Below are positions 1,968 through 15,135 of a DNA stretch of 47,623 nucleotides, piece by piece (positions within the stretch are counted from its first letter, which is position 1; each line of letters opens with the position of its first letter). The DNA comes from a phage, in sequence record PZ445468.1; one strand, given 5' to 3'. The notes below the pieces were generated by a model that saw nothing but the letters and a program-made list of their open reading frames with translations, was not told the origin of the DNA and searched no databases. Made by a program: the position numbers and the translations under genes.

Positions 1968-2174
1968 ATGCGCAGCTATGCAGGATTCACACAGGAGGAA
2001 AAAGAGCAGGTTTATTCACTGGCACGGGCTGGTGTGCCTGATGACGTGATTTGCCGTAGGTATGACATCGACGAGGATTTTCTGCTGCGCGTTATTGATG
2101 ACGTCTTCGTTAACCTGCAAGAGAAGCGCGGGTACAAGGGTATCTGCTGCAAGAATGATTTTTTGAGAGGGTGA
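1968..2174 (+). CDS. hypothetical protein
   Basis: ORF with GGAGA RBS; internal Met start of track ORF 1908..2174. Confidence 0.45.
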   Translation: MRSYAGFTQEEKEQVYSLARAGVPDDVICRRYDIDEDFLLRVIDDVFVNLQEKRGYKGICCKNDFLRG

Positions 2175-2175
2175 T

Positions 2176-2583
2176 ATGTTTAATAATAAACTAAAGAAAA
2201 TAATCCGCGATGCTGCGGATAAGAAATACACCAAAAAGATTGATATATCATTCATTGACGGCACTGGCCTGTACAATCACGCCTGTCACCTGAATGCGGT
2301 AAACCGGGCTAGAGATGGGAGTTCGTGCGCAGTGGTTGAGGTTGTGGTGATTGATGATAAGTCGGTGAGCGCTCATTACATCAATATGCAGTCAGACGGC
2401 ACATACATCGACTACACGCTTGGGTGGCACTGGTCAGGTGCCGATTACCGATTTGTGCGATATGTTCCGTTTACTGAATGGAGTGATATAACAAGTTCGC
2501 TTGAGCGCCTCAAGTCAGAACTTTGTAAGCCAGTCAGCAAATGGATGCGCGCCTTTATGTTAACTAATAACGAAATGTGTTGA
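2176..2583 (+). CDS. hypothetical protein (135 aa)
   Basis: ORF tightly packed after previous gene. Confidence 0.5.
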   Translation: MFNNKLKKIIRDAADKKYTKKIDISFIDGTGLYNHACHLNAVNRARDGSSCAVVEVVVIDDKSVSAHYINMQSDGTYIDYTLGWHWSGADYRFVRYVPFTEWSDITSSLERLKSELCKPVSKWMRAFMLTNNEMC

Positions 2584-2591
2584 GGTGATTT

Positions 2592-2759
2592 ATGATTATT
2601 GAAGGTAAAATTTTTACTGATTTGTCGGTCAGCGAGATAAAAGAAAAATTTTCAATGAACATCAACCAGGAAGGCGATGCAATTATCATCGACAAACACC
2701 AGGCCGCACAGCTCATCGAAGTCCTGCAGCGTTGGATTAATGGTGAGAAGATTGAGTGA
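2592..2759 (+). CDS. hypothetical protein (55 aa)
   Basis: short ORF read by eye, GAGGTGA RBS, stop overlaps next start (TGATG). Confidence 0.4.
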   Translation: MIIEGKIFTDLSVSEIKEKFSMNINQEGDAIIIDKHQAAQLIEVLQRWINGEKIE

Positions 2760-2947
2760 TGAGCGTTTATTTTATTCATGCTGAAGCCGTGCTGAGTAAC
2801 GGCTGCGTTGCTGAGAAGATAGGAAGAATCGCAATTGCTGATAGCGCCGTGACGGCGTTCGATGGATTCTTTTCTGATGCTACGGTTGCCAAGCTACGAG
2901 AGCAAGGTATTGAAGTTGTAATTGATAAATTCGAAAAGGTGGAGTGA
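2759..2947 (+). CDS. hypothetical protein (62 aa)
   Basis: ORF with overlapping start/stop coupling. Confidence 0.4.
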   Translation: MSVYFIHAEAVLSNGCVAEKIGRIAIADSAVTAFDGFFSDATVAKLREQGIEVVIDKFEKVE

Positions 2948-3108
2948 TGGCACTATTCTGGTCGTTCTGGATTCCATTTAACTTTATGTTCTGGTGGGCT
3001 ATGGCCGCCGGAGTGAATGAACCAAGCATGCTACACTTCATGATCGGTTCATTTTTCGCGGTGGTAACTGGTATTGTGCCATGTTTACTGTATCAATATT
3101 TCAAATAG
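2947..3108 (+). CDS. small hydrophobic membrane protein (53 aa)
   Basis: short ORF read by eye; W/F-rich hydrophobic sequence; GGAG RBS. Confidence 0.35.
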   Translation: MALFWSFWIPFNFMFWWAMAAGVNEPSMLHFMIGSFFAVVTGIVPCLLYQYFK

Positions 3109-3360
3109 AGGTGGGGTAATGACAAGGAAATAGGTTCACGAATATTCTATTGCAGCCAGGAAGCGCGTCGAAGGTGTATGGACGAATCATGGATTGCGCA
3201 GCAATAGAGCTAAATTGTTTGCAAAATGTCACCAAGTAGTAATTGGCGACAGGATTGAGTGTTACGCGTTTAATCAGTGGATGAAGTCTGGTGTTGTTAA
3301 TAAGGGATAATTACATCAGCACCGCGAGCATCATAATCAGCATTGCCACCATGCTATAAT

Positions 3361-3387
3361 CCCATCCAACGTGATGGGATTTTTTTA
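3361..3387 (+). terminator. rho-independent terminator
   Basis: CCCATC-caacgt-GATGGG hairpin followed by ATTTTTTT; immediately preceded by TGCTATAAT. Confidence 0.5.
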
Positions 3388-9026: not shown

Positions 9027-9055
9027 AAAAAAACCCCGTAATGGGGCTTTGTTTT
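9027..9055 (-). terminator. rho-independent terminator for minus-strand operon
   Basis: CCCCGTAATGGGG hairpin with A7 on plus side (U-run on minus transcript). Confidence 0.65.
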
Positions 9056-9260
9056 AGAACTGAGTAATGCGAGCGTCTAAAATATTCCCATAGGTTCGCA
9101 TTGCGTTAAGTTGAGTGAAGAGTAGATGCTTTTCAATTTCAGGAAGAAGCATATATTCAGGATTATTTTTGATAAAGGCATCAAGCATTTCCGCCCTTCC
9201 CCATAAGTCGCGAGCCTCATCAATAACTCTTTTTTGGTAAGGTTTCATTTCTTTAGTCAT
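9054..9260 (-). CDS. hypothetical protein (68 aa)
   Basis: ORF. Confidence 0.45.
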   Translation of the reverse strand: MTKEMKPYQKRVIDEARDLWGRAEMLDAFIKNNPEYMLLPEIEKHLLFTQLNAMRTYGNILDARITQF

Positions 9261-9412
9261 TTTAATTTTCCGTATAGCGGTTTAATTTCATACCCAAACA
9301 TCTGCGCATTCTCATGCTCAACGCTACCAGCAAACACCAGGTAACGCTTGCCTCGATTATCCGTAACGATGTAGGCAGATGGCTCACTCTGCTGGCAATG
9401 TTGTTGGCTCAT
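9257..9412 (-). CDS. hypothetical protein
   Basis: ORF, ATG start chosen inside track ORF. Confidence 0.35.
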   Translation of the reverse strand: MSQQHCQQSEPSAYIVTDNRGKRYLVFAGSVEHENAQMFGYEIKPLYGKLK

Positions 9413-9692
9413 CAACAGATTCCTCAACCGCAGCTTCAACGATGCGCACCAGTGAACACTCAAGGTTCGGTGCATTGTAATTACCAGCCAGAAACAGAAC
9501 GCTACCCGTACTAATCAGCACCTGCTTTGCGCCTGCCTGTGACAGATTCTGCACGATGAATTGCGCCGTTTCCGTGCCGATTTTCAGCACTGCACTACCG
9601 TCGCTGTTCAGTGATACCAGTTGTGCGGATGTGTCAGCAATATTGGTAAAGTTCGCATTTCGTTGCGCGATTGTGATGTCGCAGAATGACAT
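9384..9692 (-). CDS. hypothetical protein (102 aa)
   Basis: ORF with ATG, coupled to upstream gene. Confidence 0.4.
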   Translation of the reverse strand: MSFCDITIAQRNANFTNIADTSAQLVSLNSDGSAVLKIGTETAQFIVQNLSQAGAKQVLISTGSVLFLAGNYNAPNLECSLVRIVEAAVEESVDEPTTLPAE

Positions 9693-10183
9693 TATTTAAT
9701 CTCTCCATTCAGTTCATTAACAATTAACGTCGCATAGCCAGCAATATCTTTCCAGCTATCGTCATAAGTCGGGTCGCCATTCAGGATGCGCCCAATCTTG
9801 TGCTGAATCATGTCGAGCGCCTCGCGTTGGCTTGGCGTCAGGTTGCGCCAGCCATCTACCTCGCGCATTACATCTTTCAGCTCCTGCATGATTTCAGCGC
9901 CGTCTTTGAATTTGCCGTATCGACTACCGCGTTCGGTGATGAGTTGCTCGGTTGCGTCAGCCTCTGGCGCGCCAATGCAATCGTTGAGGTCTTGCTCGTC
10001 GGTAATTGGCTCACGGTATGCAATAACAACATCCCCGCAACCCTCAATCACTTCAATGCGACCAGCATAATCTATGCTTAGATAGAAAATCTCACCAGTA
10101 CTTCCTGACTTAACTACAAGATAAGCCGTGTCATGGCCAGCAAAATCATCATCACATCCTTTCAGATATTTCCACTTTTTCAT
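9692..10183 (-). CDS. hypothetical protein (163 aa)
   Basis: ORF; acidic alpha-helical C-terminal domain, function not recognised. Confidence 0.5.
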   Translation of the reverse strand: MKKWKYLKGCDDDFAGHDTAYLVVKSGSTGEIFYLSIDYAGRIEVIEGCGDVVIAYREPITDEQDLNDCIGAPEADATEQLITERGSRYGKFKDGAEIMQELKDVMREVDGWRNLTPSQREALDMIQHKIGRILNGDPTYDDSWKDIAGYATLIVNELNGEIK

Positions 10184-10374
10184 TTCATCGTCACCAGATT
10201 ATTTTCATCAACATTAAAATTCTCACGAATCACCTGGTACATCTCATCTTTAGGCATATCAGCCAGTGCCACATAGCAGCGGGCAAAGTAGCGAACATCA
10301 CGGAGTGTCAGCGGCTGGCGCTTCTCCACAATGCTGGTGATAATGTCCATCGGCTCGCGTCGTGGTCTTGGCAT
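10180..10374 (-). CDS. hypothetical protein
   Basis: ORF with AAGGAG RBS (start at internal ATG of track ORF). Confidence 0.45.
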   Translation of the reverse strand: MPRPRREPMDIITSIVEKRQPLTLRDVRYFARCYVALADMPKDEMYQVIRENFNVDENNLVTMK

Positions 10375-10402
10375 ATTTACTACTCCTTCTCGAAAATTAT
10401 TG

Positions 10403-10447
10403 TTGACCAATCTACATCATTTAGTCAATACTTATTGACGTAGATTG
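10403..10447. promoter_or_regulatory. divergent promoter region with convergent motif pair
   Basis: TTGACCAATCTACATCA ... TTGACGTAGATTG between divergent operons. Confidence 0.4.
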
Positions 10448-10474
10448 TACCACAACGGAAAAGGTGATGTGGAA

Positions 10475-10672
10475 ATGCGATACAAAGAAATAGCAGCGAG
10501 ATATCAGAAAGAGGTGCGCGAGGTTATGGAAATCCTTAACGTTCGCGAAGATACCATTAAGTATGTGGAAACTGCCATGTGTTCACTGGCTCTTGAAGCG
10601 GAGGTTGCAGGTCGTGAAAAGGCTGACGAACTTATATCTGCGGTGGTTTATAGTTCAACCAGTAACGGTTGA
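10475..10672 (+). CDS. hypothetical protein (66 aa)
   Basis: ATG with AAAAGGTGA RBS. Confidence 0.45.
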   Translation: MRYKEIAARYQKEVREVMEILNVREDTIKYVETAMCSLALEAEVAGREKADELISAVVYSSTSNG

Positions 10673-10732
10673 AGACGAAGGTTATCTGTGCGTTGAGCAT
10701 GTTGTTATTAAATTCTACGGGAGAAATTACAA

Positions 10733-10927
10733 ATGGCGCATGACGAGCTGTACGAAAACTCGCTAATCCAGCGACTGAATGAAGTTGAACGTACTCGCGA
10801 ATGGCTTGAGTGTGACCTGCGAGAAGTGCGTAACCGCCTGCAACGCAATCGCAGCCAGCAGAAGGACGTTATCGACTGGTCGGGCGATACGCCTAAATTT
10901 AACAACATTGGAGAATGGATAAAATGA
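10733..10927 (+). CDS. hypothetical protein (64 aa)
   Basis: ORF. Confidence 0.45.
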   Translation: MAHDELYENSLIQRLNEVERTREWLECDLREVRNRLQRNRSQQKDVIDWSGDTPKFNNIGEWIK

Positions 10928-11145
10928 GAAAGTTCAGCACGATACACGAATTGGTTTTAGCTGATATTCGTGAGTCAAACGCCAGAAATAAGAAGTCAAG
11001 AAATCAGCGGCAAGATATTACTTTTCGCACACTGCTTAAGCAATCGATGCGCAATAAAAAGGAATGGAGATACAGACGCGACCGAGTTCTGATAAGACTG
11101 TGCAAGTTAAACATGAATAAGATACTTAAGGATATGACAAAATGA
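10924..11145 (+). CDS. hypothetical basic protein
   Basis: ORF, K/R-rich. Confidence 0.4.
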   Translation: MRKFSTIHELVLADIRESNARNKKSRNQRQDITFRTLLKQSMRNKKEWRYRRDRVLIRLCKLNMNKILKDMTK

Positions 11146-11393
11146 GCGCACCACATATGCCGATGATGAATGAGGAAGGATTTTTGAACTGCCCATTCTG
11201 TGGCTGCAATGAAGTTAGCATTGCTGTCGATGAGGATGGGTGGGAGTACATAGAATGCGGAGATTGCTATTGCCGTACAGACGCATTTCGTAACAGAGAG
11301 CTAATGACTAAATCATGGAACACGAGAGAGGGACACATCTACACCGCAGACGACTTCAATCAGGCAGCGGAGGAGCGCGATTATGGATTATAA
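11142..11393 (+). CDS. zinc-finger protein
   Basis: CPFCGC ... CGDCYC cysteine pairs. Confidence 0.45.
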   Translation: MSAPHMPMMNEEGFLNCPFCGCNEVSIAVDEDGWEYIECGDCYCRTDAFRNRELMTKSWNTREGHIYTADDFNQAAEERDYGL

Positions 11394-11871
11394 ATCACAA
11401 ATCATGCGCGTGATTATGATGCATCCCGGCGCAACGCGTGCATACATTGAGAAGCATTGCGGAGGAAAGCACTCTAGCACTACAACGCACCGTCTGCATG
11501 AGATGCTTGCGCTTGGCTTTATTCGCCGCGAGAAGTCAGTGATTCGTGGTGGCAAGTGGCAGTATAAGTATTTCATCTCTGATGATGCGGCAGGTATTGA
11601 TGATGCAATTAAGTGCCATCTGATTGATAACGCTGGCGCAGAAGTGAAAGAAATCAGCATCGCAACTGGCATTGATTACCGAATCGTGAAAAGCCGCGTC
11701 CGCATTATGTTTCATAACGGTGATGTGACGCGAAGCTATGACCACCACAAGAAACTGTGGCGTTACTCATGGAAGGAGCAGGAAGTAAATGTGAGCAACC
11801 TGTTTAATTCACTTCTTCGCAACGCAAGAGGTCGTCATGGGGAAAGCGAAACGCAAGAAGCAAGAGTATGA
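11383..11871 (+). CDS. hypothetical protein, possible winged-helix DNA-binding
   Basis: two helix-rich repeats; weak. Confidence 0.4.
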   Translation: MDYKSQIMRVIMMHPGATRAYIEKHCGGKHSSTTTHRLHEMLALGFIRREKSVIRGGKWQYKYFISDDAAGIDDAIKCHLIDNAGAEVKEISIATGIDYRIVKSRVRIMFHNGDVTRSYDHHKKLWRYSWKEQEVNVSNLFNSLLRNARGRHGESETQEARV

Positions 11872-12013
11872 GCCACTGCCGCCATGCGAAATGTCAGGAA
11901 TGCCACAGCAAGAGGACGTGATTCTCACCGAGGCAGAGTGGCGCAAGGTGGCAAGGGTGCAAATCATGTTCCGCAAACTTGCTGAGGACGTACTAAATGA
12001 GATGGGCTATTAA
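11837..12013 (+). CDS. hypothetical protein (58 aa)
   Basis: short ORF read by eye, overlaps neighbours. Confidence 0.25.
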   Translation: MGKAKRKKQEYEPLPPCEMSGMPQQEDVILTEAEWRKVARVQIMFRKLAEDVLNEMGY

Positions 12014-12347
12014 GCACAAATCCGGCAGAACTCTGTTTGTAACATCAGATGAGTTCATTGCCAATAACCGTAAAGAGATGGGCTGGATAGTGGAGGAAGT
12101 GAAGATGACGAGTAAAGAGCAGTTTAACGAATGGTTTTATGAATATACCGGGTGCAACCCAAAGGACAGTAGATATGTGAATATGGTCGAGATGTACTGG
12201 ATGGCATGGCAGGCATCTCGCGCAGCAATTGAGATTGAATTGCCAGAGCCGTGCTCCCCAGGTGATTTCTGTGTTGATATACCAGCACAAGCACATCATG
12301 AAGTTATTGAAGCAATCGAAAACGCAGGCTTAAAGGTGAAAAAATGA
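11997..12347 (+). CDS. hypothetical protein (116 aa)
   Basis: ORF. Confidence 0.45.
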   Translation: MRWAIKHKSGRTLFVTSDEFIANNRKEMGWIVEEVKMTSKEQFNEWFYEYTGCNPKDSRYVNMVEMYWMAWQASRAAIEIELPEPCSPGDFCVDIPAQAHHEVIEAIENAGLKVKK

Positions 12348-12673
12348 TTATCCAGTTAAACGACATTATGAAAGCAGACATCATTCAGCTTGAAGATTAT
12401 GACATGCAATTGGCGTTTGAAATCGAAACTGTTGAGCGTCAACTGCAATATGCAGATAAGAAGAATGACCGCGTCTGGCATGAGAAAGCACTTAAGGCAC
12501 GCGACCACATGAAGCGCACGCGAGCACTCATCAAAACGCGACTCGATAAGCTGTATTTTGGCGAAGAAAGGATGTTGCATGGCGCAATTCTTGCCGAGGT
12601 GCGCAAAACAATGTCAGTTGGTCGCTTCATGGAACTGGTACATAAGGCTAAACGTAATGCGGGGTTGGTTTGA
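12344..12673 (+). CDS. hypothetical protein (109 aa)
   Basis: ORF with 4-nt overlap. Confidence 0.45.
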   Translation: MIIQLNDIMKADIIQLEDYDMQLAFEIETVERQLQYADKKNDRVWHEKALKARDHMKRTRALIKTRLDKLYFGEERMLHGAILAEVRKTMSVGRFMELVHKAKRNAGLV

Positions 12674-12921
12674 TGGAATTTAATATAAATGAGTCTGTAA
12701 AAATTAAGCTCAACGATAATGGCATCAATATTCTGCGCAAGCGACACAATGAACTTCGTTTGAGAGTTCCTGGTATTGGTGATTTTGTCGAGCCAGCAAA
12801 AGATGATGATGGATATTCGTCATTTCCGCTGTGGGCGCTATTCGATACATTTGGAGAATATGTCCACCTTGGGTGCATTCCACCATTCGACACTACAATT
12901 ATCATCCCGGAGCGAAAATGA
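12670..12921 (+). CDS. hypothetical protein (83 aa)
   Basis: ORF. Confidence 0.45.
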   Translation: MMEFNINESVKIKLNDNGINILRKRHNELRLRVPGIGDFVEPAKDDDGYSSFPLWALFDTFGEYVHLGCIPPFDTTIIIPERK

Positions 12922-13064
12922 TTCCATTACTTTGGATATTATCCGCCTACGCATTCGCAAGGGTATTTGAGGCTGACACGCTGTACCAGATGATTTGCTA
13001 TGGCGCTCTGTTCTGCCTGTCAGGTGCTGCGCTTGCATTCATGGATGATGTGATTTCAGACTAA
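12918..13064 (+). CDS. small membrane protein
   Basis: hydrophobic 48-aa ORF, internal ATG of track ORF. Confidence 0.3.
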   Translation: MIPLLWILSAYAFARVFEADTLYQMICYGALFCLSGAALAFMDDVISD

Positions 13065-13216
13065 CACCGTATATCTTTTGTTCATCATGGGCTGCTATCA
13101 TTTAATCAGGAGGTAGCCCATGAACATAATCCCTATCACTTACTTTCTCACGCTCTACGCGCTCACCGACTCGCCATTGTTTGCACTGGCTACCGCCTCA
13201 TGGTGCTACATCTCCC

Positions 13217-13227
13217 TGTGTTATAAT
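13217..13227 (+). promoter_or_regulatory. extended -10 promoter TGTGTTATAAT
   Basis: TGnTATAAT 31 nt upstream of 13259 ATG, no -35 consensus. Confidence 0.45.
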
Positions 13228-13258
13228 TCGACCACAAACTAACCGTGGAGAGTTAACC

Positions 13259-15135
<1,877 letters not shown>

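Follow-up and report, generated by a model that had tools for sequence, protein, structure and literature searches.

Escherichia phage TanjaMuster_Bas81 (Bas81; PQ850630.1), a virulent siphovirus of the Skatevirus cluster, carries a block of ten small plus-strand genes at positions 10475-13064, and our analysis suggests that this block is probably a separately promoted accessory operon, non-structural and largely non-essential. The record is the 47,623-base stretch of DNA analyzed here (the window), with 100% identity over the block; coordinates below are those of the window, and the record coordinate is the window coordinate plus 1048. The genome is complete and circular, and the phage, a small virulent siphovirus, comes from part two of the BASEL collection, for which E. 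coli K-12 with restored O16 antigen served as the isolation host (PMC11990801).

Genes, promoters and boundaries of the block

About ten small plus-strand genes of 48-162 amino acids had been described in the initial annotation, and the record contains ten plus-strand coding sequences of agreeing sizes, Bas81_0030 to Bas81_0039 (10469/10475-13064; here g30 to g39), with 65/67, 64, 73, 83, 162, 58, 116, 109, 82 and 48 amino acids in order. For g30, the PHROG alignment and the relatives favor the ATG at 10475, which was the start chosen in the initial annotation, over the GenBank GTG at 10469. The ten genes are as follows.

g30 (Bas81_0030), 10475..10672, plus strand: 65 amino acids, acidic, helical; phrog_37091 at 1e-47, aligned from residue 3
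g31 (Bas81_0031), 10733..10927, plus strand: 64 amino acids, coiled-coil-like; phrog_15697 at 2e-41
g32 (Bas81_0032), 10924..11145, plus strand: 73 amino acids, basic, isoelectric point (pI) 11.4; DUF7301 protein
g33 (Bas81_0033), 11142..11393, plus strand: 83 amino acids; Lar-family Cys4 zinc ribbon (C17, C20, C39, C42)
g34 (Bas81_0034), 11383..11871, plus strand: 162 amino acids, pI 9.6; predicted tandem winged helix, C-terminal helix and disordered tail
g35 (Bas81_0035), 11837..12013, plus strand: 58 amino acids; phrog_17117 at 9e-40; overlaps the tail of g34 by 35 nt
g36 (Bas81_0036), 11997..12347, plus strand: 116 amino acids, modular; precomputed family PF26207
g37 (Bas81_0037), 12344..12673, plus strand: 109 amino acids, basic, helical; phrog_14549 at 2e-65
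g38 (Bas81_0038), 12673..12921, plus strand: 82 amino acids; slot-9 gene specific to Bas81
g39 (Bas81_0039), 12918..13064, plus strand: 48 amino acids, hydrophobic (grand average of hydropathy 1.11); phrog_18423 at 8e-37

Each of the ten open reading frames has a PHROG family match (E-values 1e-14 to 1e-65). Neighboring genes overlap by 1-35 nt at eight of the nine junctions, a purine-rich ribosome-binding site lies at every gene start, and the ten genes are translationally coupled. When the block was compared with that of Bas79, the substitutions fell mostly at third-codon positions, and the ratio of nonsynonymous to synonymous substitution rates (dN/dS) was 0.09 for g30, 0.07 for g31, 0.11 for g32, 0.08 for g34, 0.00 for g35, 0.14 for g37, 0.00 for g39 and 0.07 for the next gene downstream, g40; g33 and g36 formed a higher pair (0.39 and 0.38). 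By these ratios, every block gene with a Bas79 homologue is under purifying selection.

The initial annotation placed the block between the lysis cassette and the capsid genes. This position is right, but a five-gene minus-strand cluster (9054-10374) separates the lysis cassette from the block and has its control region in common with it. The products of that cluster are a crAss001_48-related protein (PF21825), a DUF6378 protein and three proteins without an assigned function. The shared intergenic control region spans 10375-10468 and holds one plus-strand and two minus-strand promoter candidates, together with two inverted copies of the motif AATCTACNTCA.

Candidate sigma-70 promoter of the block, 10403..10432, plus strand: TTGACC (10403-10408), 18-nt spacer, AATACT (10427-10432), from a consensus scan
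Candidate minus-strand promoter 1, 10428 to 10399, minus strand: TTGACT-N18-AACAAT
Candidate minus-strand promoter 2, 10473 to 10444, minus strand: TCCACA-N18-TACAAT, with an upstream TG
Inverted AATCTACNTCA pair, 10409-10419 (plus strand) and 10436-10446 (minus strand): starts 27 bp apart

Transcription from the block promoter is predicted to start near 10439. As the initial annotation proposed, the block appears to be driven from this divergent region, since the promoter-like element at 10403-10432 is kept in seven close relatives, and also in a Klebsiella phage with protein identities of only 36-43%. In the seven relatives TTGAC and AATACT are invariant and spacer positions vary. The -35 and -10 elements and both motif copies are also present in the Klebsiella phage, VLCpiS13d, where the control region is about 85% identical, whereas the winged-helix proteins are 36% and the DUF7301 proteins 43% identical. 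The control region is thus better conserved than the genes it is predicted to drive. A minus-strand promoter is annotated at the equivalent place in the record of the relative ASO78B.

The first copy of AATCTACNTCA lies within the promoter spacer and the second just downstream of the -10 element. In the whole Bas81 genome the motif has 18 matches with at most one mismatch, compared to 3.4 expected, and none of 100 shuffled sequences reached 18. The copies lie mainly in promoter regions, and the sites include 1841, 1937, 7507, 7534, 10409, 10436, 19186, 22792, 24849, 36693, 43518 and 43535; inverted pairs with starts 27 bp apart occur at both 7.5 kb and 10.4 kb, and the 27-bp pair is also found in VLCpiS13d. 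Bas78, Sf11, Skate and VLCpiS13d have 6-8 exact copies each. As a negative control, the reversed motif gave no copies.

Downstream of g39 follow an eleventh small gene (g40), the gene for a scaffold-like protein of 470 amino acids (g41, start at 13259), a decoration gene and the major capsid gene. Three features mark this boundary.

RNA hairpin, 13079..13126, plus strand: base-pairs the g40 Shine-Dalgarno sequence and AUG with sequence upstream of them; -20.5 kcal/mol, z -2.66
g40 (Bas81_0040), 13120..13242, plus strand: hydrophobic peptide of 40 amino acids; 8 of 10 substitutions among seven phages at third codon positions
Extended -10 promoter TGTTATAAT, 13219..13227, plus strand: promoter of the operon for scaffold, decoration and capsid proteins; the g41 start codon (13259) follows 32 nt downstream

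The TGTTATAAT site is found in all fetched relatives and in VLCpiS13d. The capsid operon is thus promoted on its own, so that the block falls between structural operons with separate promoters and not inside one. The same arrangement holds across the genome: extended -10 elements that follow the pattern TGNTA(N)AAT occur at 3352, 7554, 13219, 19206, 22827, 24889, 31919 and 46532, all on the plus strand, 25-40 nt upstream of the starts of structural, packaging and lysis operons and with no TTGACA-like -35 element. Perfect TGNTATAAT sites are limited to four in the genome, all on the plus strand, and each stands 30-38 nt upstream of one of four operons (portal, scaffold, tail-tube and tape-measure); versions with one mismatch are found ahead of the genes for packaging, lysis, neck and tail fibres. 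The small-gene clusters, on either strand, have TTGAC-type -35 boxes in front of them. The initial annotation regarded the block as early or host-takeover genes, by their content, sitting inside the morphogenesis region. The non-structural character of the gene content stands, with a Lar-like zinc ribbon, a tandem winged helix of DNA-binding type, a basic DUF7301 protein and small proteins without assigned function. The paradox does not, for the structural genes are divided among at least eight operons that each have an extended -10 promoter of their own, and the accessory clusters lie between them.

The hairpin region 13079-13126 is invariant in seven phages, and both the 55-nt spacer before g40 and g40 itself are nearly invariant. 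VLCpiS13d has an equivalent of g40 with 40 amino acids and a hairpin at the same place with a different sequence (-25.8 kcal/mol, z -5.17). This hairpin may serve as a translation control, a processing site or a means of 3'-end stabilization. A terminator is annotated at 13065-13119 in ASO78B; the structure there is a hairpin without a U tract, and we therefore do not call it a terminator. The last third of g40 holds the capsid-operon promoter, so this stretch is both coding sequence and promoter. Elsewhere in the window, a terminator hairpin at 3361-3387 (CCCATC...GATGGG followed by seven T) directly adjoins the portal promoter TGCTATAAT, which separates the portal operon from the insulated small-gene cluster at 1968-3310. 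No terminator of this kind belongs to the block, and a scan found no terminator-like sites inside it.

Dispensability, virion content and alternative explanations

Genes 3-11 of the Salmonella phage seszw (Skatevirus), which are syntenic with the block, were mapped by genome reduction based on CRISPR, and a spontaneous deletion of genes 3-10 arose in populations (PMC9825161). The seszw orthologues of g30 to g37 are, in order, gene 3 (g30), gene 4 (g31), gene 5 (g32), gene 6 (g33), gene 7 (g34), gene 8 (g35), gene 9 (g36) and gene 10 (g37). We read the deletions from the deposited genomes of seven clones, six of which bear deletions. Genes 4, 5, 6, 7 and 9 are missing from clone 290S, genes 3, 7 and 9 from 290L, genes 3, 4 and 7 from 220S, genes 3 and 7 from 170L and gene 4 from 20L, and clone 2t2 has a fusion of genes 8 and 9. 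Gene 7, the g34 orthologue, is deleted in four of the six deletion-bearing clones. Since these clones are viable, the orthologues of g30-g34 and g36 are dispensable for lytic growth in the laboratory. In the neighboring minus-strand cluster, seszw gene 1, the orthologue of the 163-amino-acid DUF6378 gene, is deleted in four of the seven clones.

The initial annotation had named virion association, along with late expression, as what would speak against its reading. The virion mass-spectrometry table of the relative Sf11 lists capsid, portal and tail proteins and a few hypothetical proteins, and it contains no protein of the size and position of any block product (PMC12724387). The gp numbers in that paper partly disagree with GenBank MF158038 (PMC12724387, Table 1): its "gp42 portal, 470 residues" corresponds to a 48-amino-acid gene in GenBank, and its "gp52, 13 kDa" to a 31-amino-acid gene. 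Sf11 has two distinct proteins of 470 amino acids, the portal protein and a scaffold-like homologue of g41.

Synteny of the block extends to Bas78-80, ASO78B, Skate, seszw, Sf11 and VLCpiS13d, and a core order is kept across phages of E. coli, Salmonella, Shigella and Klebsiella: two small genes, the DUF7301 gene, the Lar-like gene, the tandem winged-helix gene, a small gene and g36. Within this order, individual slots have been swapped, lost or invaded by HNH endonuclease genes. Bas78 has no DUF7301 gene and carries an HNH gene in slot 5, and in place of g34 it has a 99-amino-acid gene that is unrelated to g34; slot 9 of Skate is an HNH gene; Sf11 has neither a DUF7301 nor a Lar gene; and the product of slot 7 varies from 115 to 143 amino acids. 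The public runs that contain the sequence come from wastewater or from mixed phages, are stored as contigs and are mixtures of relatives, and their contigs skip exactly g32, the C-terminal part of g36 and g38.

Together with the control region, these observations are consistent with the following scheme. Host sigma-70 RNA polymerase would start at TTGACC-N18-AATACT soon after infection, which would make the block an early unit. Its products would act on the host or on DNA transactions of the phage and not in the virion; the fast-evolving cores of g33 and g36, with conserved ends around them, may be swappable specificity modules; and g39 and g40, two near-invariant putative membrane peptides, may form a separate, more constrained distal part next to the capsid promoter. 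We infer early expression from the promoter dichotomy and from the precedent of Thermus phage P23-45 and T4. The middle as well as the late genes in P23-45 have extended -10 promoters, and its gp39, like T4 AsiA, inhibits only -10/-35 promoters, so that extended -10 promoters escape (PMC3950348). The only transcriptome found near this group is that of Kagunavirus K1B4, which belongs to another genus, gives coarse classes and has no mappable homologues (PMC12645636). By analogy with P23-45 and T4, the Bas81 group could time its genes by promoter class: a small conserved block protein of no assigned function would bind RNA polymerase and make it unable to recognize -35 elements. Host promoters and the accessory promoters of the phage itself would then be silenced while the eight extended -10 operons stay active, and AATCTACNTCA would mark the regulated promoters. 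As a whole, such a switch by promoter class is quite improbable. If such a factor exists, the best candidates may be g37, whose seszw orthologue is present in every clone inspected, and g35, whose orthologue is intact in all but one.

Several observations weigh against an early, dispensable accessory operon. In the consensus scan, TTGACC-N18-AATACT matched only 9 of 12 consensus positions, with a weak -10 element (AATACT), and promoter-like sites were no commoner in the scanned region than in shuffled sequences; both the timing and the transcription start are predictions. Read-through into the capsid operon is possible, since there is no canonical terminator between the block and the capsid genes. 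The evidence for dispensability covers only some of the members: seszw genes 10 and 11, the orthologues of g37 and g39, are kept in all seven clones inspected, and gene 8, the g35 orthologue, is intact in six of seven and fused to gene 9 in 2t2. The Sf11 mass spectrometry was done on an excised gel band, in which proteins of 5-18 kDa could be missed. Finally, Bas77-81 were "markedly sensitive to RM systems" (restriction-modification) in the BASEL phenotyping (PMC11990801), which argues against effective anti-restriction by g33 under those conditions.

Some of these points would fit a middle or late unit that is co-transcribed with the capsid genes, in which some members (especially g35, g37, g39 and g40) help in assembly or lysis timing. 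The block lies on the same strand as the capsid genes, the stretch 13064-13259 has no U-tract terminator, the g39 and g40 proteins are 98-100% identical to their Bas79 counterparts, and of the seszw genes, 10 and 11 survive in all reduced clones inspected and 8 is intact in all but one. We consider this explanation unlikely, because the capsid operon has a conserved extended -10 promoter of its own and the candidate block promoter is of the -35 type, as in other accessory clusters; in addition, the orthologues of six promoter-proximal genes are deletable, a deletion of genes 3-10 arose in seszw populations, and the Sf11 virion list holds no block product.

Less likely still is that the block is mainly a recombination hot spot for selfish or near-neutral cargo, such as HNH homing endonucleases and ORFans, with no organized operon function. 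The HNH genes inserted in Bas78 and Skate, the unique acquisition of g38 with its relatives in Bacillus, Vibrio and Pantoea phages, the precise gene-sized gaps in the contigs and the dispensability of the block in the laboratory would all be expected of such a site. However, position, order and core content are kept in a Klebsiella phage at 36-43% protein identity, dN/dS values of 0.00-0.14 for most genes point to sustained purifying selection, and the control region is conserved above the level of the genes it is predicted to drive.

It is highly improbable that g34 reads the genome-wide AATCTACNTCA motif and that the block is the master regulatory operon of the phage: although g34 is the only predicted DNA-binding protein of the block, two inverted motif copies flank the -10 element of its own promoter and motif and gene co-occur in VLCpiS13d, Bas78 has no g34 homologue anywhere in its genome and still has seven exact copies, so that g34 was rejected as the sole binder, and seszw clones without gene 7 are viable. 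Taken together, these results make a separately promoted accessory operon a better explanation than any of the three alternatives.

Properties of the individual gene products

A Cys4 zinc-finger protein had been recognized in the initial annotation, and this protein, g33 (11142-11393), scores above the threshold of the Pfam Lar_restr_allev family (PF14354; 37.2 bits, cut-off 28.6, E-value 3.4e-9, residues 15-62). It narrowly misses the cut-off of NCBIfam TIGR03655 (37.3 bits, cut-off 39.6) and lies far below that of the RalR equivalog NF007260 (19.2 bits, cut-off 113); the NCBIfam scan of the block gave nothing beyond this Lar match. The four cysteines of the ribbon (CxxC ... CxxC; C17, C20, C39 and C42) are invariant in seven homologues. 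In seven relatives, the first 15 and last 25 residues are conserved, while ribbon residues 21-58 are hypervariable. The ribbon core (window 11202-11315) is thus hypervariable among phages that are otherwise about 90% identical, with nearly invariant tails, whereas usually it is the domain that is conserved and the tails that vary. The Bas81 genome has two EcoKI sites compared to about five expected. The g33 protein is a candidate modulator of type I restriction.

The possible winged-helix protein at 11383-11871, g34, was modelled by AlphaFold2 as two tandem winged helices, with a three-helix and two-strand (HHH-beta-beta) pattern that occurs twice (predicted local distance difference test (pLDDT) 81, predicted template-modelling score 0.63). 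Foldseek gave generic winged-helix matches only, at about 1e-3, and relatives are scarce (8 clusters among 1.8 billion representatives). The PHROG family of g34, phrog_1687, bears the label MarR. The scores against MarR_2 (16.4 bits, gathering score 27) and MarR (13 bits, gathering score 24.6) are both below threshold, and the MarR fold, a single winged helix within N- and C-terminal dimerization helices, does not agree with a model that has two in one chain and template-modelling scores below 0.45 to MarR proteins in Foldseek. The tandem model and the low MarR scores indicate that the earlier call of a possible winged helix was right and that the PHROG label is wrong. From the model, we infer that g34 is a putative nucleic-acid-binding regulator.

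The modular protein g36 has a conserved N-module (residues 1-36), hypervariable inner segments and a conserved AGLKVKK C-terminus in the alignment of relatives. Conserved "linker" segments lie between the hypervariable ones in this family, and some relatives have a 36-residue Cys-rich insert after the N-module. The N-module by itself recurs in Klebsiella and Vi II-E1 phages. An AlphaFold2 model of g36 (pLDDT 72) had no fold match in the PDB better than an E-value of 3.7.

Among the remaining products, g32 matches PF23975 (DUF7301) over its full length (85.7 bits, cut-off 27, E-value 2.3e-24), and a g32-type gene is paired with a Lar-like gene out to Klebsiella phages. In the phage collection, g38 is found within this cluster in Bas81 only. 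Pantoea, Vibrio, Klebsiella and Bacillus SPO1-like phages have homologues that are 37-47% identical to it, and those of T5-like phages are about 30% identical; the homologue of Pantoea phage PdC23 is flanked by rusA and the gene for replication protein P. Bas79 has an unrelated gene in slot 9. The g35 protein is 100% identical to that of Bas79, with eight synonymous changes, and the same is true of g39 (100% amino-acid identity, eight synonymous changes), which has two hydrophobic stretches as judged by eye. Sequence searches of the PDB with g32, g33, g34, g37 and g38 found no relatives, and PADLOC gave no matches.

Outside the block, Retron-Sen3, whose reported trigger is RecBCD inhibition, protects against Bas81, and its trigger in lambda is the Red operon (bioRxiv 10.64898/2026.04.27.721009). 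Bas81 has annotated exonuclease VIII and SSB genes at 34-39 kb, which we take to be its recombination genes. The protection by Retron-Sen3 suggests that Bas81 may encode a RecBCD inhibitor, most likely near these two genes.

Significance and comparison with known systems

The public record already annotates the genes themselves, it has been published that their orthologues are dispensable, and an accessory operon of small genes is a familiar kind of element; the block leaves the current understanding of phage biology unchanged. New here are the operon boundaries, the separate capsid promoter, the deep conservation of the control region, the predicted g34 fold and the variability patterns. Defence systems are widely tested with the phages of the BASEL reference collection. 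Since Bas81 is one of these, it is useful to know that this 2.6-kb block is probably separately promoted and largely dispensable. With its Lar-like ribbon, the modular g36 and the Bas81-specific g38, the block is a natural place to seek counter-defence or host-takeover functions, and it is also a natural payload insertion site for phage engineering. The more interesting leads are regulatory and lie around the block, namely the two promoter classes, the genome-wide motif and the conserved hairpin over the g40 start.

A close comparison is with seszw, whose genes 3-11 are syntenic orthologues of g30-g37 and g39 and lie, as in Bas81, between a divergent control region and the scaffold gene. The two differ in that seszw has a 139-amino-acid allele in slot 7 and no g38 in the annotation read, its Lar-like and DUF7301 proteins are 57% and 62% identical to those of Bas81, and essentiality was assessed on Salmonella, not E. 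coli.

The Lar/RalR protein of the Rac prophage resembles g33 as a small Cys4 zinc-ribbon protein above the PF14354 threshold that is encoded among small accessory genes. In contrast, g33, of 83 amino acids, has a hypervariable ribbon core between extensions that are conserved at both the N- and the C-terminus, and scores below the TIGR03655 and RalR cut-offs. RalR has been described as the DNase toxin of a type I toxin-antitoxin system (PMC4041452).

With P23-45 (gp39) and T4 (AsiA), Bas81 shares the use of two promoter classes by gene class, in which the accessory clusters have candidate -35/-10 promoters and the structural and lysis operons have extended -10 promoters without a -35 element. 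Unlike in those phages, no homologue of AsiA or gp39 was identified in the part of the Bas81 proteome that was scanned.

The lambda nin region is a cluster of small, largely dispensable open reading frames between the replication genes and the antiterminator gene. The block resembles it in its short, coupled and mosaic genes that are dispensable in the laboratory, and the Lar-like gene is labelled NinD in the record of one relative. It differs from the nin region in having its own divergent promoter and in its place in a virulent phage, where the lysis module lies on one side of it and the capsid module on the other.

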